Source of the DNA: a virus | Taxonomy: Duplodnaviria; Caudoviricetes | Strand: one strand, 5' to 3' | Virus record (IMG/VR): IMGVR_UViG_3300042894_007079 | Coordinates: 785-64,784 of that record | Length of the DNA: 64,000 bases | Part shown: positions 20,416 through 57,206 of the stretch, piece after piece | Position numbering within the stretch: position 1 is the first letter of the stretch | Layout of the letters: each line of letters opens with the position of its first letter | Notes under the pieces: generated by a model | Told to the model about the DNA's origin: nothing | The model's input: only the letters and a program-made list of their open reading frames with translations | Database searches by the model: none | Translations under genes and position numbers: made by a program

Positions 20416-20466
20416 CTATAAAAAATCCACCTTTGAATTTTTTTAAAAAACCGCTTATTATATATA
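20416..20466 (+). promoter_or_regulatory. Late promoter (TTATATATA) with upstream CTATAAAAAATCCAC element
   Basis: Same 15-mer and the same 42-bp offset recur at 22610-22660. Confidence 0.7.
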
Positions 20467-20502: not shown

Positions 20503-22608
20503 ATGAAACCAGTATTAATCGTAGAAAATTCAACGAATGCTCTAATACGAGAAAATGCGTCCGGTAAAAAAGACTACGTTTTAGGCGGTACCTTCACTGA
20601 ATTTGGTGTGAAGAACCGTAATGAGCGTATCTACACGGCCGACAGATTCTTGCCAGCATTGGACGAATTAAATGAAAGAATGAATAGCCTTGGTGCTGTT
20701 TATGGTGAGTTCGATCACCCAGATGTTTTTGACACTTCGTTAGCAAGAGCATCCCACATTATCACAAAAGCACAGTATGTTAAAGAACAAAACATCGTTG
20801 CTGGTGAAATCCGACTTCTAAGCACTTATTGGGGTAAAGAGGCTAAAGCATTGGTAGACGATGGTTGTCCAGTATTCGTTTCTTCTAGAGCGGCTGGTAT
20901 TACTGAGTCTGATGGTTCTGTTTCTTTAAAGAAGTTATTCACTTATGATATCGTAGCTGACCCAGGTTTTGCGTCAGCAAAAATGAGTGTAAAGGTTCTT
21001 AATGAGTCTTTAGGTTACACTAATCCGCAATCTAACTTTAGGATATATGAAATGTCCGACGAGTCAAAAATAAATGAATTATTCAATATGAACAATAACG
21101 AGTTTGTAACTAAAAAACAGTTAACAGATTATTCACAATATCTGGTAAACGAAATTGCTTCTACTAAAAAAGAGGTAAAAAGTGCTATCACTAAGGGTAA
21201 TATGTCTCCTAAGAAATTAGAGCAATTACTTGAGTACTATGAAGAATTAAACAACACTAATGAGAAAGTTGTTAAATATTTAGATTACTTAGCTGAAAAA
21301 ATTCAAGTTGTAGTTAATGAGAACAAATCTCTTAAATCAACAACTGAAAAATTAGCTAAACATAATGACTATTTAGCTGAAAATCTTGAGAAAGCAATTA
21401 ACTACACTGAGTATGTTGCTGAAAATCTTGACAAAAATATCGAGTATTCTGAGTATTTAGCTGAGAATTTAGATAGAAACATTTCTTATTCGGAATATAT
21501 TGCTGAAAACTTAGATAAAAATATTTCTTACTCTGAGTATTTAGCTGAAAACTTAGATAAGAATATTGCTTACTCTGAGTATATCGCTGAAAATCTTGAT
21601 AAAAACATCGCTTACTCTGAATACATCGCTGAAAACTTAGATAAGAATATTGCTTACTCTGAGTATATCGCTGAGCACGTTGATAATTCAATTGCTTATT
21701 CTGAATATTTAGCTGAGCATGTTGAGGGTAACATCGCTTACTCCGAATACATCGCTGAACATTTAGATGATAATATTGCTTATTCTGAATATATCGCTGA
21801 AAATCTTGACAAATCAATTAACTATCAAGGAATGATTGTTGAGAAATTAAATACAAAAGGAAGTAGATTATTTGAATCTATGGATGAGGCTTTTCCTTCA
21901 TTAACTTCTGCTGGTTTTGAAAACGTAGAAGATGAAAAAGAGGAAGAACAATCACATAATTATGATTATAAAGGAATGCCATCAAAAGAAGATGATGAAA
22001 AACATTATATGATGAATAAAGATGATGAAGATGTAATGGATAAAGAAGAGAATATGGAACCAAACTCTTATGAGGTTTCTGGAAACAATGACTCTGAATT
22101 ATCTGAATCTATTAATAAACTTATTGAAGAAGCTAAAAAACGTAAAGTTTCTGAAACAACTGACTTGAATTTCTTAAAGTTCTTAAACAAGTCTCAAGTT
22201 GACAGCTATTATGCACTATCCGATGAGGAACAAGAATCTGTAAAACTTCACATAAACGAAAGAAGTTACTTCACACAGAAAGATGTTCTTACATTAGTTG
22301 CTGAAGCTCTATCTACTAAGAACGAAACTCTTGAAGAAAGAGTAATCAGATTAATGCCTGAAAACACTAAGGCTATCTGGGAACAGTTGACAGACTCTTC
22401 TAAAAAATCGGTGCTTTCACAAGCAAGACTTTATCCTGAAGATGTTTTAAAAACTGAATCACAAGTTGAACATTTCTGGTTAACTAGAAATCTCAAAAAG
22501 AATGAATCTGTGACTAAAAAATTAGTTTCTCACGAAGCTCTTATCCAAGAGGATAAACTTTCTGACAATGAAGCTCAAGCAATTTTAGAAAGATTCAAAA
22601 ACATTTAA
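20503..22608 (+). CDS. gp21: Prohead protease (gp21-like) fused to scaffold/core domain
   Basis: NRNERIY, GEFDHP, VSSRA, YDIVADPG; followed by coiled-coil repeats; directly upstream of the MCP. Confidence 0.9.
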   Translation: MKPVLIVENSTNALIRENASGKKDYVLGGTFTEFGVKNRNERIYTADRFLPALDELNERMNSLGAVYGEFDHPDVFDTSLARASHIITKAQYVKEQNIVAGEIRLLSTYWGKEAKALVDDGCPVFVSSRAAGITESDGSVSLKKLFTYDIVADPGFASAKMSVKVLNESLGYTNPQSNFRIYEMSDESKINELFNMNNNEFVTKKQLTDYSQYLVNEIASTKKEVKSAITKGNMSPKKLEQLLEYYEELNNTNEKVVKYLDYLAEKIQVVVNENKSLKSTTEKLAKHNDYLAENLEKAINYTEYVAENLDKNIEYSEYLAENLDRNISYSEYIAENLDKNISYSEYLAENLDKNIAYSEYIAENLDKNIAYSEYIAENLDKNIAYSEYIAEHVDNSIAYSEYLAEHVEGNIAYSEYIAEHLDDNIAYSEYIAENLDKSINYQGMIVEKLNTKGSRLFESMDEAFPSLTSAGFENVEDEKEEEQSHNYDYKGMPSKEDDEKHYMMNKDDEDVMDKEENMEPNSYEVSGNNDSELSESINKLIEEAKKRKVSETTDLNFLKFLNKSQVDSYYALSDEEQESVKLHINERSYFTQKDVLTLVAEALSTKNETLEERVIRLMPENTKAIWEQLTDSSKKSVLSQARLYPEDVLKTESQVEHFWLTRNLKKNESVTKKLVSHEALIQEDKLSDNEAQAILERFKNI
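21361..21822 (+). repeat. About 11 x 42-bp coding repeat (YSEYIAENLDKNIA)
   Basis: Visible in both protein and DNA; no spacers. Confidence 0.9.
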
Positions 22609-22609
22609 T

Positions 22610-22660
22610 CTATAAAAAATCCACACCTTCAAAAATAAGGTAAATAAAGGGTTATATATA
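22610..22660 (+). promoter_or_regulatory. Late promoter (TTATATATA) with upstream CTATAAAAAATCCAC element
   Basis: Same architecture as 20416-20466. Confidence 0.7.
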
Positions 22661-22687: not shown

Positions 22688-24391
22688 ATGTCACACATTA
22701 GAATAGACAAATCAAAAGCTGTTAAGAAGTGGTCTCCAGTATTGGAAAACATGGGTGTTACGGGTGAAAGAGTAGAATGGATGGCGGAATACGCTGAGTT
22801 CCACTCAATCAACGAAAACGCTTACGTTAACGCTTCTAACGTATCAGGTATGGGCGCTGTTGTAGCTGCTCAGCCTGCTTCATTAGCAGGTCAAACTGCT
22901 CTTACATCTGGTTCACAAATTGGATCAGGTGATGTTGGTCAAAACTTATTACCAGTTGCAATGAAAATTGCTGCTCAAACAATCGGTCTTGATCTTGTTG
23001 CTGTTAAACCTTCTCCAGGTCCAAAAATCGATTTACTTTACATTGACTTCCGTTATGATGATACAAGAGATGGAGCAAACGACGAGAGACCACAAGTATT
23101 CAAATTATACGCATCTAACGTTGCTGCTATCAACACTGCTATCGTAGCTGACTTAGCTGCTGCTACTCCAGCAATCGTACAATCATCAGGTGGTTTACAA
23201 GGTGGTAGATTATTCTACAACATCAATACAGGTGCTTCTGCTACCACTGACACAGGATCTAAGCTAAACTTAGTTGAGTTCTTAGGTTTCTCTCGTGTAG
23301 ATGGATATCCAATGTTCAAAGCTTACAGACAGTTTAACACTGCTCACACAGCGGTTGGAACTGCTGGTACTCTTTGGTCTTTCGATCCAACAAGAAACAC
23401 ATTTAACCCAACTGCTTCTATGGTATCTCAAATCGTTGATATCTCTGGTGTTGTTCCTAACGCTGGTACAAAAGAAATCCAATTGGTATCTGCTCTTGAA
23501 GATCATATCCCAGGATTCTCTGCAAACTGGACACAAGGTGGAACTGGTTTCACAGGTAATTATCCAATGTCTCGTCAAGATGATGATGATACTTATTCTG
23601 GTGTTATTGGACCAAAAATCTCTTCTAAAACTATCGCAGTTGGTACTATCGAAGTATCTTCAGCTCTTAGAAGAACTGAAATTGAAGATATCAAAGCTAA
23701 CACAGGTATGGATATCGTTCAAAAAATGGAATCTATCCTTGTTAATGAATTATCTCAAACAATTTCTAAGCAAATCGTTGCTAAGATTTTTGAAATGGGT
23801 GAACTTAACAGAACATCTGCTCCTGCTGCTTCAAATACTTATTCTGGTAATATCACAAATATGACAATATTTGACTTAGATACAGAGTATGCTACAGGTG
23901 CTGGTGCTGCTGTAGGTGGTGAAACTACTCACGCTGTACAAAGAAAACTTATCACTAAGATTGCTCACGCTTCTAACTACATCGCTACTGAAGGTCGTGT
24001 AGGTCCAGCTCAATACCTTATCACAAACGGAGGTCTTGCTGCAGCTCTTTCTGATATTTCTGGATACACAATCAATCCACTTAAGTCTAAATTAAACGGA
24101 CAAGGTCAATTGTACCCTGTAGGTTCAATTGGTGATATCTCTATCTATGTTGATCCATACATGAGATATAATGACAACAGAGTTGTTCTTGGTAGAAAGA
24201 ACAATCCTGACCAACCAGGTATCATTTTCGTACCTTACTTAATGGCTCAGTCAATCTCTATCATTTCTGAAGCTACATTCGCTCCAAGAATGTTACTAAG
24301 AAGTAGATATGCAGTTGCTGAAGTTGGTTGGTTCCCACAAAAGCAGTTTATGACTATTAGAGTTGACGACGCTTACGGTCTACTTAACTAA
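22688..24391 (+). CDS. gp23: Major capsid protein (T4 gp23-like)
   Basis: KWSPVLE, DLVAVKP, IEDIKA..GMD..ESILVNELSQTI, GIIFVPY, TFAPRMLLRSRYA; strongly biased codon usage. Confidence 0.92.
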   Translation: MSHIRIDKSKAVKKWSPVLENMGVTGERVEWMAEYAEFHSINENAYVNASNVSGMGAVVAAQPASLAGQTALTSGSQIGSGDVGQNLLPVAMKIAAQTIGLDLVAVKPSPGPKIDLLYIDFRYDDTRDGANDERPQVFKLYASNVAAINTAIVADLAAATPAIVQSSGGLQGGRLFYNINTGASATTDTGSKLNLVEFLGFSRVDGYPMFKAYRQFNTAHTAVGTAGTLWSFDPTRNTFNPTASMVSQIVDISGVVPNAGTKEIQLVSALEDHIPGFSANWTQGGTGFTGNYPMSRQDDDDTYSGVIGPKISSKTIAVGTIEVSSALRRTEIEDIKANTGMDIVQKMESILVNELSQTISKQIVAKIFEMGELNRTSAPAASNTYSGNITNMTIFDLDTEYATGAGAAVGGETTHAVQRKLITKIAHASNYIATEGRVGPAQYLITNGGLAAALSDISGYTINPLKSKLNGQGQLYPVGSIGDISIYVDPYMRYNDNRVVLGRKNNPDQPGIIFVPYLMAQSISIISEATFAPRMLLRSRYAVAEVGWFPQKQFMTIRVDDAYGLLN

Positions 24392-49122: not shown

Positions 49123-49125
49123 ACT

Positions 49126-49746
49126 TTATATTTTTCTAAAAATAAAAATATCGTCTATTTCAATTTTTTCTAAACCTTCAACTTTTTCTAAAACAGACTT
49201 TAGACCAAGACCACTTTCGCGGTTTTCTATAATTAGTGAACCTGGTTTAATTTCATTTTTAAGTTTAGTATAATAATTGAATAAATCATTTTCTTCAATA
49301 TATGGTGAATAAGAATATACTATATCGTAATTAGAAAAGTCACTTGTGGCAATGTCCGCTTCTATTAGATTTAATTCGCCATTCCAAAATTCAATTAGAT
49401 TTTCTTTTAAATATTCAATATATTTAGTTTGTTTTTCTATACCATAAAAGGTGAATTTTATACCATTAATATCTTTTGATTGTAAATATAAATCAAAAAG
49501 AGCCGAGCCTAATCCAATACCCGCGTCACAAATTTTAGTTTCTGATTTTAATAGATTTTTTTCGTTTAATCTTTGTAGTAAAAAAATGTTTTGTTCTAAA
49601 TTGCTCATTATATAATGCCACTCATTTGATGAAAGTTGATTCATTTTAACAGTCAGTTCCGTCATATTATCAAATGCTGTCCAAAGAGCATTTGAAGTTT
49701 TGACATATCTGACTAACAGTGGATGTGGTTCGATTGTTTCTGTCAT
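49126..49746 (-). CDS. Class I SAM-dependent methyltransferase
   Basis: ICDAGIGLG, YGIE, EADI, YDIVYSYSPY. Confidence 0.75.
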   Translation of the reverse strand: MTETIEPHPLLVRYVKTSNALWTAFDNMTELTVKMNQLSSNEWHYIMSNLEQNIFLLQRLNEKNLLKSETKICDAGIGLGSALFDLYLQSKDINGIKFTFYGIEKQTKYIEYLKENLIEFWNGELNLIEADIATSDFSNYDIVYSYSPYIEENDLFNYYTKLKNEIKPGSLIIENRESGLGLKSVLEKVEGLEKIEIDDIFIFRKI

Positions 49747-49751
49747 TTTTT

Positions 49752-50498
49752 TTAAATTATTTTAAACCAACAATATTGTTTATTCCAGTTTGGTGTTTGA
49801 TTAAAGAAGTAATTTCCGGTTGTTGAATTATCTATAAATATTAATCCTGGTTGATCTATATTATTAGCTCTACAAACAATTATTTTATCATCATCTACTA
49901 AGTCACTATAGTGAGCTATTAATCCGTTGATATTATTTGAACCAAATTGATTGATTGCATTGTTGATATATGGTATTAATTTTTTACCGTAAAGTATAGA
50001 TTTTGCAGGTCCTATTCTGCCATCCATCGCAATTATATTAGAACACATTAGTATCTTTGAGATTATCTTTCTATAATCTGTTTCGTATTCATCTATCAAT
50101 TTATAGTCTAAGCTTTGATTTCTATGTTGAAGACTTTTCGGGCTTTGTGTATTTTGATTTAAAAAGTCAACTAATTGAATCCAAACTTTTTCATAACTCT
50201 CAAATCTCTGAGCAGTCATATTAATTTGCATTATTTTTGGACTTATAACACCCATTTGAGATGTTGAGTTATATTGTTGAGAAACATCAGTAACTTGATT
50301 TTCTCTAAATATGTTTAACTCTTCAACTTTGTCATCTAATATAGCATCAACAACTAGTTCTCGATTTTGTTGCTTCACTTTTCTCTGATATTCTTCATCG
50401 TCCGATGATATCATATCAACATACATTAATTGAGCCTTTGGTAAGCTCATTTGTTTATCTGAGTAATTACAGATATTTTTTAAATCAGAAGGTGTCAT
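49752..50498 (-). CDS. Truncated major-capsid-protein paralog
   Basis: RKIISKILMCSNIIAMDGRIGPA and RANNIDQPGLIFI align with MCP RKLITKIAHASNYIATEGRVGPA and RKNNPDQPGIIFV. Confidence 0.7.
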   Translation of the reverse strand: MTPSDLKNICNYSDKQMSLPKAQLMYVDMISSDDEEYQRKVKQQNRELVVDAILDDKVEELNIFRENQVTDVSQQYNSTSQMGVISPKIMQINMTAQRFESYEKVWIQLVDFLNQNTQSPKSLQHRNQSLDYKLIDEYETDYRKIISKILMCSNIIAMDGRIGPAKSILYGKKLIPYINNAINQFGSNNINGLIAHYSDLVDDDKIIVCRANNIDQPGLIFIDNSTTGNYFFNQTPNWNKQYCWFKII

Positions 50499-51246
50499 AT
50501 TTGTTCTTCAAACCGATTTTTGGAGAGCTCATTGCAATAGACCTTTGAATTTCTTCTCTGGATAGTTGACTTGATTTTTGTAATATTTGTAAAGTTTTTT
50601 GATATTGTTTTTGGTCTAAAGTCTCTCTACTATGGTATAAATGATAGCATTTAGCTTTCAATTCGGACCATTTCAAAAAGTGTTGTACTTTTATAGTTTG
50701 GAAATCATCTTCTCCACCCCAGCCTACAAAATCCTCGGACCAACCACCAATTTTTAAGGCAGATTCTTTTCTGAAAATAGCTATACCACCAGAAATGTTT
50801 ATTTTTTGGTTATCGGTTTCGCCTCTACCAGGTCGTTCTATTTTAATTACTTGTTCTAAAGGAAGTCCGCTTTCTTGTGGTGTTAAGTCTAAAACTGAAG
50901 AGTATGGGCTGACCATTTCAAATTCTGACATGGCTTTAAGACCGTTGATAAAATCTTCAGGATTCATAATTAAATCAGAATCTCCAAATACTACAATTTG
51001 TGATTTAGCATACTTGAGACCTACATTAAAGGCCCAAGAACGATTGTACGGCATATTTGATTTTACAAAAATATGTTCGCATCGTAAATTAAGATGTGAT
51101 ATCTTAGTGTGTTTATCTTGTTCAACTAAAATTATTTGAACGTTTGTGAAGCCGTTTACCCAGTCTAATGTTCTTCTTAGATTGTTAAGTCTATCTGCTC
51201 GGTGTCTATAACCTATAATATAGGTAAAAGATGGTTGATAAGTCAT
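50485..51246 (-). CDS. Glycosyltransferase (GT2/GT7 galactosyltransferase-like)
   Basis: YNRSWAFNVG, FGDSD, GGWSEDFVGWGGEDD. Confidence 0.85.
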   Translation of the reverse strand: MTYQPSFTYIIGYRHRADRLNNLRRTLDWVNGFTNVQIILVEQDKHTKISHLNLRCEHIFVKSNMPYNRSWAFNVGLKYAKSQIVVFGDSDLIMNPEDFINGLKAMSEFEMVSPYSSVLDLTPQESGLPLEQVIKIERPGRGETDNQKINISGGIAIFRKESALKIGGWSEDFVGWGGEDDFQTIKVQHFLKWSELKAKCYHLYHSRETLDQKQYQKTLQILQKSSQLSREEIQRSIAMSSPKIGLKNKYDTF

Positions 51247-51297
51247 TTAAAAATAATTATTTTTATTTTATATCTTTAAATGAGTGTTTTGTTTATA

Positions 51298-52326
51298 TTA
51301 GAAATTTTTAAACTTCTTGATTTTACCAAATTGATAGCTTTCGTACTTTTCAGAGTATTTTCTTTTTAATTCAGCTAATTCTGCTGCTGCCTCATCATCT
51401 GATATTTCATCTGTAATTTCGGGTAAACTTAAATCAACATTGGGTCCATCATTACTTGGTGGTGTTGGTGGAAGTAGTTTTGATTGTTTATATCTTTCCA
51501 TTTCTTCACCATAAGCTCTTTTGAAATCTTCAATTTCGCTTTTAATATAGTCGCTAATTATTTTTACAAGTTTTTGAAATAGGCTTGGTATTTTTTTAAC
51601 CATTTCTAAAAGTTTAGTAAAAGGCCAAGCACAAACTAATAAAATAGCTGATGCGATTTGTCCTGCTTTTTTAAGACCAGTGCTAAGTGCATTATAAACA
51701 ATTTCTCCAAGTCTTTTAAAAGCTTCAATTGTTGAATTCTTTGCTTTTTCAGCATATTCTTTAATTTTTGCCCAACTTTCAGATAACCACTCTGATAATC
51801 TACCACCAAGTGCTAAAAGTTTATCTTTTGTAGTTTTAACTAAACTTTTTACATTTTCTACAAGTTTATGCCACATATCTACGCACCATTCTGAAAACTG
51901 TGCGATTTTTCCAGAAAACTTTTGCCAAGCTGATTTGATACCTTCAATGGCTGAGTAGTAAGCATTTGTAACATACTCTACAAATTTTTTGAAATTGGTT
52001 GTACACCAATTGACTGCTGTTTTGAAACCTTCTTTTACACCATTTGCTATTTTCATAGCTAAATCTTTAATCCAGTTCCACGCCTGTGTAGCGTATTTTT
52101 TTCCTGTATTGTACCAACTTTTTGCTCTGTCTGGTAAGCTCTTAAAAAAATTTGTTGCTTTACCAAAAGCAGTACCCAACCAAGATCCAAGTCCTTCGTT
52201 AAGACCATCTTCAAAACCTTTGATTAAAGCTTGTCTTTCTACAGATGATATTGATTCGTTTACTGAATAAACTTTTTCAAATATCAAGTCTATTTCTTTT
52301 TCAAATTTTCTAACTTCGAATTGCAT
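51298..52326 (-). CDS. Amphipathic helical Trp-periodic protein (virion/ejection-like)
   Basis: LNEGLGSWLG, periodic W/F helices, late promoter at 52347-52355. Confidence 0.5.
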   Translation of the reverse strand: MQFEVRKFEKEIDLIFEKVYSVNESISSVERQALIKGFEDGLNEGLGSWLGTAFGKATNFFKSLPDRAKSWYNTGKKYATQAWNWIKDLAMKIANGVKEGFKTAVNWCTTNFKKFVEYVTNAYYSAIEGIKSAWQKFSGKIAQFSEWCVDMWHKLVENVKSLVKTTKDKLLALGGRLSEWLSESWAKIKEYAEKAKNSTIEAFKRLGEIVYNALSTGLKKAGQIASAILLVCAWPFTKLLEMVKKIPSLFQKLVKIISDYIKSEIEDFKRAYGEEMERYKQSKLLPPTPPSNDGPNVDLSLPEITDEISDDEAAAELAELKRKYSEKYESYQFGKIKKFKNF

Positions 52327-52402
52327 GTTTATAGTGTAATTTTTCTTATATATTAAATTTGATAATTAAATATTTTACATCTTTTTGTATCAAAATTTAT
52401 TT

Positions 52403-53002
52403 TTATATAAAATAAATTTTCCACTTTTCATCTAAGATATTAAAATCAAATTCATATTTAAACATATCGAATTCATCATTCCAATAGTTATTGATACTGT
52501 GATTCCATAAAAGACATTTTTCCAATGGGTTAACACCTCCATATTTTCTTTTAAACCAACTATATGGATTATTTGGTATATTACATAATATATTATTAAA
52601 TGTTGACTTTTTTAGTGGATATATTTCATCTTCTGTTAATTCTGATGATATTCCATATTCTATTTCATTATTTCTTTTAAGGAAGAAGATATCTATTGAT
52701 TCGTCTTCTATACTTGCTCTATATAATTTATCATCTACTGGTGATTCTGTTATCTTTATATTCATATTGATATTCAAAACTGTTTCTAGATATTCCTGTG
52801 GAATGCATATATCTATATCATCATCCCATGGTATAAATCCCTTATGTCTAAGACATCCTATCAATGTGCCGTATCCTAACCAGTGGTCTATTTTATTTTT
52901 ATCCAATTCATCTATTAACTCATTAAGTAATTTTAATAGTTTTTTTTGTTTTTTTACAAATTTTGCATTTATTATTTTTTCCAAAATCTCGTTAGGATTC
53001 AT
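52403..53002 (-). CDS. licD: LicD-family phosphotransferase
   Basis: GTLIGCLRHKGFIPWDDDIDI, IDIF, IYPLK, IPNNP. Confidence 0.88.
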   Translation of the reverse strand: MNPNEILEKIINAKFVKKQKKLLKLLNELIDELDKNKIDHWLGYGTLIGCLRHKGFIPWDDDIDICIPQEYLETVLNINMNIKITESPVDDKLYRASIEDESIDIFFLKRNNEIEYGISSELTEDEIYPLKKSTFNNILCNIPNNPYSWFKRKYGGVNPLEKCLLWNHSINNYWNDEFDMFKYEFDFNILDEKWKIYFI

Positions 53003-56000
53003 AATATTTTTTTAATTTCTGTAGAACTTATATTTTCTGTTCTTGGAAGATATACAACATCACATGGTAGATTGTCAAATTTACCTTTCCAGTCATCACC
53101 CATAACAAATGTGTTTACTTTGTATTTTCTTATATCATCTACCTTTTGTTCCCAACTTTCTTCAGGTATTACTAAATCTACTTGTTTAATAGATTCTATC
53201 CATTCTTTTCTTTGTTCATAGTTAAATCTACTTATTTTATTTTTTAATAAGTTAAAACTATCGGTTGATATACCTACTATTAAATAATCTCCCATCTTTT
53301 TGGCTCTTTTTATGATTTCCATATGTCCAAAGTGAAAGGTGTCAAAAGTTCCATAAGTTATGATTACTTTTTTATTTAGATTTTCAATCTCCTCTAAATA
53401 ACTTGGTATATTATTTAATTGTAAGTCTTGAATTATTTGAAAATCCTTTCTATCTCTTTCGTCTATAAGACCTTCTCTGTGTTCAAATTCATCTATATCT
53501 AATCTTTTAATTTCGTAGAAACATGGATCTTCAAATCTTAGTGCAATCGAAGAGTTTGCGTATTTTCTATCTACATACTCACATCTAATTGCGTCTTCCC
53601 ATTTTACTCCGTTAGACAGAGAGAATCCTCTATATTCATCATAGAATGAATCCTTATTAATATACTTTTTTTCATCTTTAATGAATACAGTTTCTCCAGT
53701 AAACCACATTGAGAATTTATCATCTCTTGTTCTCAATGAATAAGATGTTATTAGTTTGTTTAGATTTTCTCTATTTGCTATAAAGTCAGCATCCCATTTA
53801 AATATGGTTTTTCTTGTAGATTTACTCAGACAGAAGTTATAATATTGAGCTATACTATTACCCAATATATTTATATTATTTTGATAGTTAGGTCCTGGTT
53901 TTGGTATTTCTCTATCATATCTGAAAACTTTTAAGTTATCATAAATTTTACTTAACTCTAATGCTTTTTCATATGTTCCGTCTGTAGATAAATGGTCTAC
54001 AAAAATAATTTCATCTGCTATATCACTAATACTATCTATACAATCTTGTATATTTAATATTTCATTTCTAGCTCTAATAACAAAGCTTACTCCTTCTTTG
54101 TATCCTCCATAAAGGAAGTCTAAATAATATTTAGCATTTTCAGAGCTTCTATGATACTTTATCCTTTCTATTATTTTATTCTTATCTATTGTATTTTTAT
54201 TTAGAATAGATTTTATTTCATTGACAAACATATCTATCTCAAAATCTTTAAACCTGGAGAATATATAATCATCACTTGAAGGATCAAATGATTTTCTTTG
54301 TTTCATTTCTATTACAGACCCACATCCTGATAGCACCAAAGGTATCTCACCATGTGAAGGATATACACAGTGAATACCTATTGACATTTGCTCAAGTAGT
54401 GATATTGGTAATCCCTCACTTGGAGAAGTATTTATAGCTATATTAAAGCACGACGCGTATTTTATAACATCTTCGTTATTTACATGTCCTGTTATAATTA
54501 CTCTATCTTGTAGGTTGTATTTTTTTATTTCATCTAATACCTCATTTTTATAGGGTTTTGACTCTTCTTTTTCCGGTGCGTCTCCAACAATAAGTAGTTT
54601 AGTGTTATTATCTAATTTGCTCAAAATTTTAATTGCATCTAGAATATTTTTATCAGGAGAAATTCTAGTGATCATTCCAATAATAAATTCGTTATTAAGT
54701 ATTCTAAATTTTCTCTTTAGATTTCTATTATCAAAGTTTTTATAGGAGTCTTGGATTTTATAAAATTCTACATAATTTGGAACTGTTGATATTCTTGTAT
54801 TACATACACCCTTTTTATTTAATTCATTTCTAATTTTGTCATGAATCACAATATATTTGTCTGTTATAATATCATGTTTATAGACTTCATTTGTTACCCA
54901 TTCTATATCAGAGTGCGCTATGGTATAATATTTAAAATTTTTATTTTCTTTTACTTTATGTATGTATTCAGAAATTCCGAAGTAGTTGCAATTATAAACT
55001 ATATCAACATCATTCGTTAATGATTCCAAAACTTCATATACTTTTGATTTATCTATTTCATTTAACTTTGAGTGGTATAGATCGACATCTAATAGTTTAG
55101 TTTTTTCAAAAAACATTCCTTTTCCTGCTGAAATTACAACTACATTGTATCCAAGTTCTTTACAGGCTTTGATGTGTTGATATGATACATATTCAGCGCC
55201 GCCTGTATCGTTTAAGTATATTAGAAATAGAATACTTTTTTTACTGGTCTTGGTCGTTGATTTTTTTACTAACTCTATATGATTTGATTTTATTAGTTTT
55301 TCCAGAGAGTTTGGTGATACTACATCATCAATATTGAAATTGAACGACTCTAAATTCCATTTCATTAATTTTGAATATTCATCCATTGATTTGCTTTGTC
55401 TTATGTCCGATTGAGAGACATCTGAAATTACTATATTTGGATAAATAACAAAACTCTGATTATTTTTTAATTGATATTCGGAAAGAAGATTGTCTATTGA
55501 TTTTCTTTTTGTTTCAAATAGTTCAAGTAAATCATCATAAATGTTTGAATTTATAGCATAAGCAAATGTTCCTAATGTATTTGAGCATTTATAAAAACCA
55601 TTATTAACTTTTACTCCTGTCCAATTAAATTGAGATGCGCCTAAATAAAGTAGTTCCCAGCTTAATTTATTTATTTGAGAAATTCTTTCGTTAAATTCAT
55701 TTGATAAAATCACATCATCCTCAAAAATAAGTATTCTTTTATACTTGGCTGACTTTGCTTCTTTTATGATTTCTATATGAGACATAAGGCAACCAAGTGC
55801 ATACTTATTTTCAATTAAACCTAATTTACTTGAATCAACTTCGGATATTTTTCTATTTGATATTTCGTTGAATTCATCGTCTGTTATGTCATTGCCATCA
55901 ATTCCTAAAAATCTATCTACATTTATATTAAGCTCCTTAAATTGTGTATTTGTTTTTTGCCATTTTTCACTATTTCTTTCCAGATTTAAACAGTAAATTT

Positions 56001-57192
56001 TATCAAAATATGAGTTTATATCAAATTTATTTTGTCCGATTGATTCAAATAATCTTTGAAATTCAGCATCTTCAATAAATCTATCAGTCTTTCTACCATC
56101 CCAATTAGTGTAACTTTTCCCTAAATGAATTATATGGTTTTTAATAGTTTGTTTTTGTGTAAATTTATCTCTAAATAACAAATCTGAAAATGCAGCATTC
56201 TCTGATGTTTCTGGATAGCTAATTGCCTTTGAGTAGTGAAACAGTTGAAAAAATCCTAATCCTCTATCTGATTCGTTTTTTATATGTTTTTTTAGAGAGT
56301 TTACATCTGTCTCCCATTTATATAAGTCATCGTAAGTTTCACACATCCATCTATCTGAAGTATAAAGTGTTTCTGTGTCTAAGTATTCTGTATTTATTCT
56401 GTCCTTTACGATAATATCAGCGTCTATAAGTAAAATGAATCCTGGATCTTTTATTGAATTTATAGCTAAGTTTATGGCTTTTCCTTTATTAAATTTGGCT
56501 CCTTCGTCATACATTATATCTGTTGTGATATAATTAACTTTAAATTTTTCACAAATCATTTGGCACATTTTATCTTCATTACTGGTGACAACAGTAATAT
56601 TATCAAAAGTTTCAATATTCCTTGTGAGTGTCGGTAAAAGAAAGTCATTATAGTTTACAGAGACTATTATTACATTTAGTTTTTTAAATACGTCTAAATT
56701 TTTAGATTTTACTAAATCACCTTTTCTTCTAATATTTTCTAGTTTTAATTCTTTTTCAATCGGATTATTTTTTTTATGAATAGTTCCAAAGTCAATTGTG
56801 GATATTTTAGGATTTTTAAAATGTTCATCAATAACCAAATCTTTACTAATTTTAGTATCTTTATTAATAATAATAAAATCTTTTGTCTTGTAGATAGATG
56901 GTTCTGTCAATAAAAACCTTAAATCTTCATTGAAACCAATTAGTGATTTTTTTGACCAAATTATTTTACTTTGTGATGTGTATTTTTTAGAAATTTCTAA
57001 TAATTGATATTCGTCATATTTTTTTACAAAGTATTTTATTTTTGGATGTTTAGGTAGGTCTTTATTATCACCATCAATGAAGACAAATATTTCAGATATG
57101 TATCCATTATTTGAATTATGGATTAAACAATTTATATGTTCCTGCTTATAACTTAGAAAATCACCAAATGAAATTTTGTTTATTAATAACAT
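52999..57192 (-). CDS. Multidomain glycosyltransferase (GT2 + GT25 + GT4 + GT2) fused to TagD-like cytidylyltransferase
   Basis: IIVSVNY..IDADI; YCLNL..GCLMSH..IFEDD; GGAE..SEGLPISLLE; SFVIRARNE..WDAD; ITYGTFD.FHFGH..RTENISST. Confidence 0.85.
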   Translation of the reverse strand: MLLINKISFGDFLSYKQEHINCLIHNSNNGYISEIFVFIDGDNKDLPKHPKIKYFVKKYDEYQLLEISKKYTSQSKIIWSKKSLIGFNEDLRFLLTEPSIYKTKDFIIINKDTKISKDLVIDEHFKNPKISTIDFGTIHKKNNPIEKELKLENIRRKGDLVKSKNLDVFKKLNVIIVSVNYNDFLLPTLTRNIETFDNITVVTSNEDKMCQMICEKFKVNYITTDIMYDEGAKFNKGKAINLAINSIKDPGFILLIDADIIVKDRINTEYLDTETLYTSDRWMCETYDDLYKWETDVNSLKKHIKNESDRGLGFFQLFHYSKAISYPETSENAAFSDLLFRDKFTQKQTIKNHIIHLGKSYTNWDGRKTDRFIEDAEFQRLFESIGQNKFDINSYFDKIYCLNLERNSEKWQKTNTQFKELNINVDRFLGIDGNDITDDEFNEISNRKISEVDSSKLGLIENKYALGCLMSHIEIIKEAKSAKYKRILIFEDDVILSNEFNERISQINKLSWELLYLGASQFNWTGVKVNNGFYKCSNTLGTFAYAINSNIYDDLLELFETKRKSIDNLLSEYQLKNNQSFVIYPNIVISDVSQSDIRQSKSMDEYSKLMKWNLESFNFNIDDVVSPNSLEKLIKSNHIELVKKSTTKTSKKSILFLIYLNDTGGAEYVSYQHIKACKELGYNVVVISAGKGMFFEKTKLLDVDLYHSKLNEIDKSKVYEVLESLTNDVDIVYNCNYFGISEYIHKVKENKNFKYYTIAHSDIEWVTNEVYKHDIITDKYIVIHDKIRNELNKKGVCNTRISTVPNYVEFYKIQDSYKNFDNRNLKRKFRILNNEFIIGMITRISPDKNILDAIKILSKLDNNTKLLIVGDAPEKEESKPYKNEVLDEIKKYNLQDRVIITGHVNNEDVIKYASCFNIAINTSPSEGLPISLLEQMSIGIHCVYPSHGEIPLVLSGCGSVIEMKQRKSFDPSSDDYIFSRFKDFEIDMFVNEIKSILNKNTIDKNKIIERIKYHRSSENAKYYLDFLYGGYKEGVSFVIRARNEILNIQDCIDSISDIADEIIFVDHLSTDGTYEKALELSKIYDNLKVFRYDREIPKPGPNYQNNINILGNSIAQYYNFCLSKSTRKTIFKWDADFIANRENLNKLITSYSLRTRDDKFSMWFTGETVFIKDEKKYINKDSFYDEYRGFSLSNGVKWEDAIRCEYVDRKYANSSIALRFEDPCFYEIKRLDIDEFEHREGLIDERDRKDFQIIQDLQLNNIPSYLEEIENLNKKVIITYGTFDTFHFGHMEIIKRAKKMGDYLIVGISTDSFNLLKNKISRFNYEQRKEWIESIKQVDLVIPEESWEQKVDDIRKYKVNTFVMGDDWKGKFDNLPCDVVYLPRTENISSTEIKKIL

Positions 57193-57197
57193 ATTTT

Positions 57198-57206
57198 TAT
57201 ATATTA
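57198..57206 (-). promoter_or_regulatory. Putative late promoter for the glycosylation operon
   Basis: TAATATATA on the minus strand 5 nt upstream of the ATG. Confidence 0.6.

Follow-up and report, generated by a model that had tools for sequence, protein, structure and literature searches.

A small paralog of the gp23-type major capsid protein with a predicted minimal HK97 fold, encoded outside the head genes of relatives of huge phages

Why would a tailed phage carry, at a distance from its head genes, a second and much smaller protein that resembles its own major capsid protein (MCP)? This question is raised by an open reading frame (ORF) in a stretch of 64,000 nucleotides of viral DNA (hereafter the window), which corresponds to positions 785 to 64,784 of the IMG/VR virus record IMGVR_UViG_3300042894_007079. 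The record, from a very large phage of lake water, is 64.8 kb in length and rated 28% complete, and the DNA of the window is AT-rich (GC 26-37%). A reading made from the sequence alone (hereafter the sequence-only reading) had described the ORF as a stand-alone paralog of the MCP C-terminal domain and as an exapted capsid fragment. The 248-aa ORF, here named mini, was confirmed as real, with every peptide quoted for it found in its place, and the distance of about 25 kb from the head genes given in that reading was found to be 25.4 kb between mini and the MCP gene. Mini is a functional, accessory and rapidly diversifying paralog of the gp23-type MCP. The regions of the window on which this comparison depends are as follows.

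49752-50498 (-): mini, the mini-HK97 gene, 248 aa (ORF, predicted fold and family)
22688-24391 (+): MCP of the gp23 type, 567 aa, the parent paralog (Pfam Gp23, E 9.8e-27)
23915-24235 (+): MCP residues 410-516, counterpart of mini residues 135-223 (BLASTP and both hhalign comparisons)

Homology and predicted fold of mini

Comparison of mini with the MCP of the window using BLASTP gave one significant alignment, of mini residues 143-222 with MCP residues 419-515 (50.1 bits, E 2e-11, 32/97 identical), in which both of the long matches to the MCP noted in the sequence-only reading are contained. Profile comparisons agreed with this, as hhalign matched a profile of 76 family members to the window MCP with a probability of 97.6% (E 3.2e-12) and to an alignment of seven MCPs with one of 98.2% (E 4.2e-14). 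Significant homology between the two proteins was found to span approximately 88 residues that form the A-domain core, and the best-shared segment (RKIISKI...GRIGPA) is identical at 14 of 23 residues. When a hidden Markov model (HMM) of the family was run against the 64.8-kb record, two places only were identified, namely mini and the MCP (MCP E 1e-16), with HMM positions 79-226 aligning with MCP residues ~339-515.

Two shorter matches had also been claimed. That of GVISPKI to GVIGPKI of the MCP is marginal on score (ungapped score 37, equalled in 16/300 shuffles), and the segment is colinear and conserved in both families; a second colinear anchor was identified between PKAQLMYVDM of mini and PKIDLLYIDF of the MCP (score 35, equalled in 23/300 shuffles). 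The C-terminal match of NKQYCWFKI to QKQFMTIRV did not hold up, with 131 of 300 shuffles being as good, which is chance level. Mini of the window has no match to any Pfam or PHROG family, including Pfam Gp23 (PF07068) at E<=0.05. Among the 76 family members, Pfam Gp23 was found to match 22 at this threshold (best 2.1e-9) and the PHROG family 'major head protein' to match 13. A search of PDB sequences with the family profile returned four weak, unrelated matches (E at least 0.12), T4 gp23 being out of sequence reach. The possibility that mini is a recent in-genome copy of the MCP kept similar by gene conversion was rejected, as its identity to the resident MCP is limited to the universally conserved core.

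An AlphaFold2 model of mini, built from the 76-sequence alignment, was obtained with a pLDDT of 92.6 and a pTM of 0.86 and possesses an HK97-like fold with an A domain and, as read from DSSP, P-domain strands, a spine-like helix and an E-loop-like hairpin. Foldseek returned 70 PDB and 66 BFVD matches for this model at E<=1e-3. Apart from several unnamed entries, two with the name prohead protease and one encapsulin, the rows listed are HK97-fold capsid proteins. In the PDB, T4 gp23 of the unexpanded head was matched best (E 1.3e-6, TMq 0.55), and BFVD rank 15 was taken by a 'head vertex protein' from Vibrio phage nt-1, 297 aa in length. As a TMq of 0.55 exceeds 0.46, the maximum for residues 135-248 alone, part of the N-terminal half of mini also superposes. 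Thus, on the model, mini is predicted to be a whole, compact, minimal HK97 fold and not a C-terminal fragment. Neither its description as a C-terminal domain nor that as a protein lacking most of the shell-forming regions is supported by the model, in which the parts missing are the delta/N-arm region at the N-terminus and the insertion domain alone. The order of elements in the model is strand 21-31, hairpin 32-67, loop 68-84, strand 85-98, helix 102-116, an A domain from residue 138 and a C-terminal strand, and the following segments were delimited.

50406-50441 (-): residues 20-31, long strand carrying PKAQLMYVDM (DSSP strand 21-31; colinear anchor)
50298-50405 (-): residues 32-67, family-specific helical hairpin with invariant R46 (DSSP helices 32-54 and 58-67)
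50205-50246 (-): residues 85-98, second long strand with the ISPK motif (DSSP strand 85-98; ISPK in the family consensus)
50151-50195 (-): residues 102-116, short helix at the putative HK97 spine-helix position (DSSP helix 102-116)
49830-50096 (-): residues 135-223, A-domain core with helix 138-160, GRIGPA hinge and DKIIVxR...PGL strands (homology to MCP)

The insertion domain of T4 gp23 and gp24 is described as hanging on two long linkers that replace the HK97 E-loop (PMC9546572), and strands 21-31 and 85-98 of mini were read as linkers 1 and 2 for this reason. Hairpin 32-67 would then replace the insertion domain of the MCP, of ~175 residues (MCP ~126-304). Mini begins ~19 residues ahead of its first linker-like strand, and neither MCP residues 1 to ~105 (delta region and N-arm) nor residues ~126-304 have a counterpart in it. 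These assignments are based on DSSP and the two sequence anchors. A model of the MCP derived from 22 close relatives was too poor (pLDDT 48.6, pTM 0.33) to be mapped onto mini by structure, with only the insertion domain (~133-268) being confident.

Relatives of mini were found to be numerous. A total of 162 were identified at E<=1e-3 in a set of 5.8 billion proteins (the best 120 of these being 201-262 aa in length), and an HMMER scan of 1.84 billion representatives gave 146 clusters at 50% identity, of which 81 had E<=1e-10. Full-length matches among the clusters are mostly 228-271 aa, with distant partial matches of up to 306 aa. One long match among the 146 (P0218, 580 aa) appears to consist of two capsid-like domains in tandem. 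Residues R46 and G218 are invariant among the 76 family sequences, and the best conserved segments are the A-domain helix and hinge, residues 203-224, the C-terminus and helix 32-54, with conservation of this family-specific helix equalling that of the A-domain core (0.52 vs 0.53).

Every family member identified comes from a viral or metagenomic contig. When 185,579 prokaryote genomes were scanned with a pattern, 113 matches were obtained, none of which was a relative, while scans of viral contigs with three divergent members found nothing and the best score in the ESM Atlas was 0.75, under lead level. A search for longer (fused) forms with the family alignment A1 also found none, which is weak evidence. 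The range of the family is limited to relatives of the huge phages, with genomes of 400-700 kb, that inhabit lakes and seas. The MCP of the window is 75% identical to those of the uncultured phage genomes LR745206.1 and LR756502.1 (635 and 642 kb), 50-52% identical to those of three records of 636-735 kb (two of which, LR756501 and LR756503, have the same length and the same coordinates), 37% identical to that of a 462-kb record and 28% identical to those of Lak megaphages. In the best 80 of 231 viral contigs, its MCP identity was 70-79%. No account of a family such as mini was found in the literature on MCP paralogs of huge phages, where supplements to huge-phage surveys, which were not covered, may list it; passages of one article on this phage group mention only the gp23-type MCP (PMC7824862).

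Genes around mini and their transcription

In the window, mini belongs to a run of four genes in the same orientation, which is listed here together with the promoter-like motifs relevant to it.

52347-52355 (-): promoter-like motif TAATATATA, 21 nt upstream of p342
51298-52326 (-): p342, helical-repeat protein, first gene of the probable transcription unit (PHROG tape-measure-like matches, best 1.4e-11)
50485-51246 (-): GT2-type glycosyltransferase (GT), 253 aa, with its stop 14 nt inside the mini gene (Pfam and PHROG matches)
49126-49746 (-): methyltransferase-like ORF (MTase), 206 aa, last gene of the run (weak Pfam matches)
22652-22660 (+): promoter-like motif TTATATATA, 28 nt upstream of the MCP start
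20458-20466 (+) and 57198-57206 (-): further sites of the motif TWATATATA (motif scan)

Mini had been placed between a GT and a methyltransferase. The GT was confirmed (Glyco_transf_7C 1.1e-8, Glycos_transf_2 2.8e-6), while the methyltransferase is a candidate with weak matches only, to PRMT5 (7.6e-5) and to Methyltransf_31 (1.7e-4, below the cut-off of that model). Homologs of the MTase ORF are limited to loci L008/9, L032, L038/41, L040 and L045 among those described below, and homologs of p342 to L038, L041 and L045.

The motif TWATATATA was identified at 26 sites in the window versus 7.6 expected (3.4-fold), a number reached in none of 100 shuffles. Many of these sites are situated from a few to ~40 nt upstream of ORF starts in the orientation of the gene itself, and the motif also precedes the scaffold/protease ORF and a 1397-aa GT. 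None is situated directly before the GT or mini. As the motif heads the run p342-GT-mini-MTase, with none directly before the GT or mini, mini is probably read from the promoter-like site of p342, and the run probably forms one transcription unit. The statement in the sequence-only reading that mini lacks the late promoter was not confirmed, as the motif of the MCP also heads the run that contains mini, though none stands directly before mini itself. The T4 late promoter TATAAATA is not enriched in the window (13 sites vs 14.8 expected). In metatranscriptome run X20, available as contigs only, parts of p342 and the junction of p179 (see below) with the MTase were covered and mini was not; this library may hold DNA and levels are not readable from it, so that it has no bearing on expression. 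A skip joint of 1589 bases (49769 to 51359) in run X3 was disregarded, as it rests on 22 letters.

Upstream of this run, at 52403-57192 (-), are a LicD-family ORF (2.8e-20) and the 1397-aa multi-domain ORF, the C-terminus of which resembles a cytidylyltransferase by an HxGH-type motif in its translation. Together these may represent a large phage-encoded glycan-synthesis cluster. In the scaffold/protease position upstream of the MCP, a 701-aa ORF at 20503-22608 (+) contains a long run of ~13-residue repeats resembling YSEYIAENLDKNI.

Besides the window, 47 loci were fetched, which are partly redundant (L005, L006, L007, L029 and L030, for example, are one sequence). The GT was found directly upstream of mini with stop and start overlapping, mostly by 14 nt, in 28 of the 47 (28 of the 41 assessable mini-bearing loci). 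It is followed by a gap before mini in three (L045, where mini is broken, L055 and L056). In nine loci, minis 63-73% identical to that of the window are situated behind the gene of an 815-816-aa protein, with the GT not nearby. The remainder consist of one distant member with neither neighbour, five loci that were not assessable and L064, which holds a member of another family. Downstream of mini, the convergent genes p179 and p409 are conserved. The GT and mini are also adjacent on six further long contigs and ~218 nt apart in G008, and on contig G001 (436 kb, rated 95% complete) mini is ~200 kb from the GT. A complex prediction for the GT and mini gave a score of 0.01 versus a mark of 0.32, with controls not run, and is evidence neither way.

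In L055 (7042-7986, -) and L056 (7050-7967, -), the gene between the GT and mini is a 305-314-aa ORF in the opposite orientation with a DUF723/DUF4379 treble-clef zinc finger. This ORF may be a mobile endonuclease-type element and could drive local allele exchange. The 815-816-aa protein is complete in five of its nine loci (coordinates include L010 3539-5989, L031 311-2761 and L033 5537-7987). The L010 copy, the sole one scanned, contains SprB, PKD repeats and a CHU_C type IX secretion C-terminal domain, and with an N-terminus that reads as a signal-peptide-like leader it is a putative secreted adhesin. An ORF of 89-99 aa, a putative lipoprotein, follows mini in eight of these nine loci, with none of this length listed in L010. 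The presence of a type IX secretion-type adhesin and a putative lipoprotein around mini would therefore indicate a Bacteroidota host and host-surface remodelling.

Spacing between mini and the MCP is 12 kb in LR756502, 22 kb in LR745206 and 158 kb in G001. Among 17 contigs of 100-385 kb that were searched, with MCPs 72-78% identical to that of the window, a full-length mini was identified on ten, where it lies 19-64 kb from the MCP, and none was found on seven. The claim that this is an MCP paralog kept outside the head module was thus borne out, by its homology to the MCP and by its separate locus.

Other ORFs derived from an MCP were identified in huge phages. The first of these, named N-mini, is 147-165 aa in length and was found at the following places.

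L068, 1369-1812 (G001)
L073, 1489-1962 (LR745206)
L074, 1480-1977 (LR756502)

N-mini consists of the N-terminal delta region and N-arm of the MCP followed by a helix and a YxDY strand, and shares 50-59% identity with the MCP over the conserved stretch LLPxAxKxAAQTxGLxLV. Two of the three copies (G001 and LR745206) end in a basic tail. In G001, the 147-aa N-mini overlaps the end of the GT gene, the place held elsewhere by mini. It is not present in the 64.8-kb record of the window. That N-mini and mini are halves of a split gene was rejected, since both hold the first linker-like strand and the order of helix and strand is opposite. The T4 Gol peptide is described as mapping to the first quarter of the MCP (PMC3014915), and the conserved stretch of N-mini lies in the same quarter.

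Relatives of mini were also identified in other contexts. In LR756500, a 408-aa protein (L019 889-2115, -) has an N-terminal half that matches the mini family (E 3.4e-13, model positions 59-251) fused to a SIS domain (1e-16), and its gene overlaps that of a CMP-Kdo-synthetase-type cytidylyltransferase (L019 2100-2822, -; CTP_transf_3 3e-53). The same genome encodes a 209-aa relative of mini beside a 313-aa ORF with a gp23-like C-terminal motif (L024 1330-1959 and 1960-2901, -). In LR756501, a 479-aa protein (L018 1384-2823, -) carries a C-terminal mini-like domain (Pfam Gp23 2.8e-5). Another small gp23-like family, of 267-306 aa with the tail RxIxYYRxxKLxRIKxLYG, is represented by L064 7680-8483 and by P0212, P0240, P0242 and P0257; the gene in L064 is situated amid paralogous kinase-like ORFs, outside any head module.

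Possible roles of mini

The role tentatively preferred here, as possible rather than probable, is that of an optional minor capsomer or shell subunit, most plausibly at pentons. Mini would act by making contacts of the capsomer type, either among its own copies or to the MCP, and such contacts are considered most likely because mini shares the axis-proximal A-domain helix and the hinge with the MCP. It would occupy special positions in the shell, most plausibly the pentameric vertices, and phages without mini would make their pentons from the MCP itself. Placement at pentons is favoured because two known homologs both sit there, namely gp24, which makes up the vertices of T4 (PMC9546572), and Ccm, a capsid-protein homolog of SaPIbov5 that is described as occupying pentamers and redirecting capsid shape (PMC8569155). 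An optional paralog is plausible because gp23-type shells without gp24 exist, the gp23-type capsid of PhiM9 being described as managing without it (PMC4621102). Linkage also speaks for a shell role, as mini lies 12-64 kb from the MCP and, in the window, in a run headed by the motif of the MCP. The frequent translational coupling of mini to the GT may, as speculation, make it a glycosylated or surface-varying subunit.

A number of observations weigh against this role, the first of which concern dispensability. In three contigs with MCPs 74-77% identical to that of the window (G004, G005 and G011), the conserved locus from the GT to p179 and p409 was found with mini cleanly missing. The order is GT, MTase-like gene and convergent p179 and p409 in G004 and G011, and GT followed by p179 and p409 in G005; no copy of mini was found anywhere in G004 (rated 90% complete) at E<=1e-3. 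The other four contigs without mini do not contain the GT locus and are uninformative. In LR756504 (636 kb), the family matches through the MCP only, and likewise the MCP was the sole match of alignment A1 in PTm1, pT24, MA9V-1, PAU and Lak-B1, which yielded no cultured member of the family. As three related phages keep the locus without it, mini is dispensable, an optional extra and not a core part of the capsid. Its neighbours are moreover non-structural, being either the GT and MTase or the type IX secretion-type adhesin and lipoprotein, and mini is without the N-arm, delta region and insertion domain, assembly elements that gp24 keeps.

Divergence of mini points in the same direction. Mean pairwise identity across 14 genomes is 41.8% for mini, 62.7% for the GT, 57.7% for p179 and 63.0% for p409, with mini the least conserved of these four syntenic genes in 84 of 91 genome pairs. 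In LR745206 and LR756502, mini is 26-30% identical while the MCP is 75% identical. A penton subunit that fits conserved hexons should track the MCP, and mini does so poorly. Synonymous divergence of mini is 2- to 5-fold under that of every measured flank in six of seven close pairs, and the pattern is reversed between the window and L038 (flanks 85% identical, mini 69%). These two observations indicate that alleles of mini move between genomes independently of their flanks. A DNA contig of run X19 hints weakly at such exchange, as its match to the window is limited to 49124-50491 (the MTase-like gene and mini) and the sequence to either side is unlike. On these comparisons, mini outpaces its neighbours in divergence, and the MCP by far, and is swapped between genomes as a cassette. 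Together with the three empty sites, this agrees with the accessory, 'exapted' status proposed in the sequence-only reading.

The ratio of non-synonymous to synonymous change (dN/dS) of mini was 0.12-0.38 in 17 pairs, an 18th having no synonymous change, and the family is accordingly under purifying selection. One of the 47 fetched loci holds a disrupted copy (L045 8001-8561), in which codons 1-22 are kept, a short stretch with stops stands in place of residues 23-115, and the remainder (residues 116-248, 76% identical) is undamaged, leaving a 135-aa ORF with the A domain only; this could be an assembly error. The other 46 comprise 40 full-length frames, five copies cut by a contig end and the different family in L064. 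Pseudogene-like decay is accordingly not a feature of the family, with its 146 clusters and one broken locus.

An anti-defence function for mini, as a decoy or sponge in the form of a non-assembling look-alike of the MCP that binds host capsid sensors, is considered unlikely, although it would account for much of the pattern above. Mini has the signature of a conflict gene, with presence or absence at one locus and the fastest divergence among its neighbours. Its dN/dS is above that of every measured flanking gene in all seven close pairs, and its lower synonymous divergence in six of these fits exchange. The neighbourhoods are regions of accessory genes, and in T4 the elements that mini is missing are described as locking the subunits in the lattice (PMC9546572). 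The best-shared segment, being highly conserved in the MCP, would be a sensor-type target; however, the same segment forms the structural core in all relatives of gp23 and would be conserved without any need of mimicry. Mimicry of a surface is doubtful since there is no significant likeness to the MCP beyond ~88 residues. A sensor of the Lit type is an unlikely target because mini is without the Gol-equivalent N-terminal quarter, where the Gol peptide of T4 is reported to lie (PMC3014915). Capsid sensors of other kinds may be targets. A bolder form of this idea, in which mini would be the first capsid-fold immune decoy, a shuffled mimic of the MCP core, with N-mini covering the other conserved MCP epitope, is held to be rather less likely again. 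We know of no MCP-fold decoy from the literature, no search aimed at one having been made.

That oligomers of mini bind, stabilise or organise the upstream GT or other sugar enzymes, as an enzyme-associated HK97 scaffold like Family 4 encapsulins, is improbable. The position of the GT directly upstream and overlapping, in the window, in the 28 loci and on the six further contigs, would fit such a scaffold, as would the fusion of a mini-like domain to a SIS sugar-isomerase domain next to a cytidylyltransferase in LR756500. The gene layout is the same as that described for Family 4 encapsulins, in which an enzyme gene is upstream and that of the HK97-derived protein downstream, with one such pair forming a stable complex (PMC8346489). 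However, nine loci have mini behind the adhesin with no GT nearby, the GT of G001 is ~200 kb away, and three loci keep the GT without mini. In addition, a zinc-finger ORF of ~940 nt is tolerated between the two genes in L055 and L056, and the GT is much more conserved than mini.

Even less probable is that mini acts as an assembly modulator or inter-phage weapon, joining MCP capsomers of its own or a co-infecting phage and thereby altering size or shape or poisoning assembly. Its HK97 fold with a conserved axis-proximal A domain, the precedent of Ccm, and the dispensability and allele exchange of mini are consistent with this. However, its gene belongs to the phage itself rather than to a satellite, a second size class of capsid is not known, and with MCPs of relatives 70-80% identical, self and non-self would be hard to distinguish. 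A decaying or functionless remnant of an MCP duplication, to which the broken copy in L045 and the three empty sites could be attributed, is very improbable given 46 of 47 loci without a disrupted copy, a dN/dS of 0.12-0.38, lengths of 228-306 aa and a very confident fold.

Comparison with known systems

Mini would represent a third kind of MCP homolog, a near-minimal HK97 fold of ~250 aa that is unlinked from the head genes, optional, cassette-like and usually coupled to a GT. The family is abundant in lake and marine huge phages. Should mini prove to be an optional penton, it would bear on how capsids are fitted in size and surface to genomes of 400-700 kb. As a decoy or as an enzyme scaffold, it would give the HK97 fold a new use in a virus. 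As a small, confidently folded protein it is suited to direct expression and testing.

To our knowledge, T4 gp24 and Ccm are the only two capsid-protein homologs with a role beside the MCP that have been characterised in tailed phages. Like mini, T4 gp24 is a phage-encoded HK97-fold paralog of a gp23-type MCP present in one copy. It has 427 aa, is encoded beside gene 23 and can be aligned with gp23 over its full length, whereas mini has 248 aa, of which ~88 residues can be aligned to the MCP, is encoded 12-64 kb away (158 kb in G001) and is polymorphic in close relatives. Furthermore, gp24 is described as keeping the insertion domain and linkers (PMC9546572), while mini is without the insertion domain and the N-arm. 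Ccm resembles mini in being a diverged capsid-protein homolog outside the head module, accessory and conflict-like (PMC8569155). It differs in that it is a satellite product directed at a helper phage, whereas mini is on the same contig as the MCP, the scaffold and other phage genes.

In Family 4 encapsulins (PF08967; Andreas and Giessen 2021), as with mini in the window and in 28 of the 41 assessable mini-bearing loci, the gene of a reduced HK97-derived protein directly follows that of an enzyme; for mini, nine loci show another neighbour and three keep the GT alone. These encapsulins are described as ~100 aa in length and limited to the A domain, and as coming from thermophilic archaea and from two genera of Bacteroidetes (PMC8346489). 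Mini, in contrast, is predicted to have the whole fold, is phage-borne and is without a Pfam match. Finally, although mini is half the length of the MCPs of the Pfam family Gp23 (PF07068) and is without their N-terminal region and insertion domain, it shares ancestry with them, as this family matches 22 of 76 members of the mini family, and the MCP of the window is its nearest detectable relative within the record.

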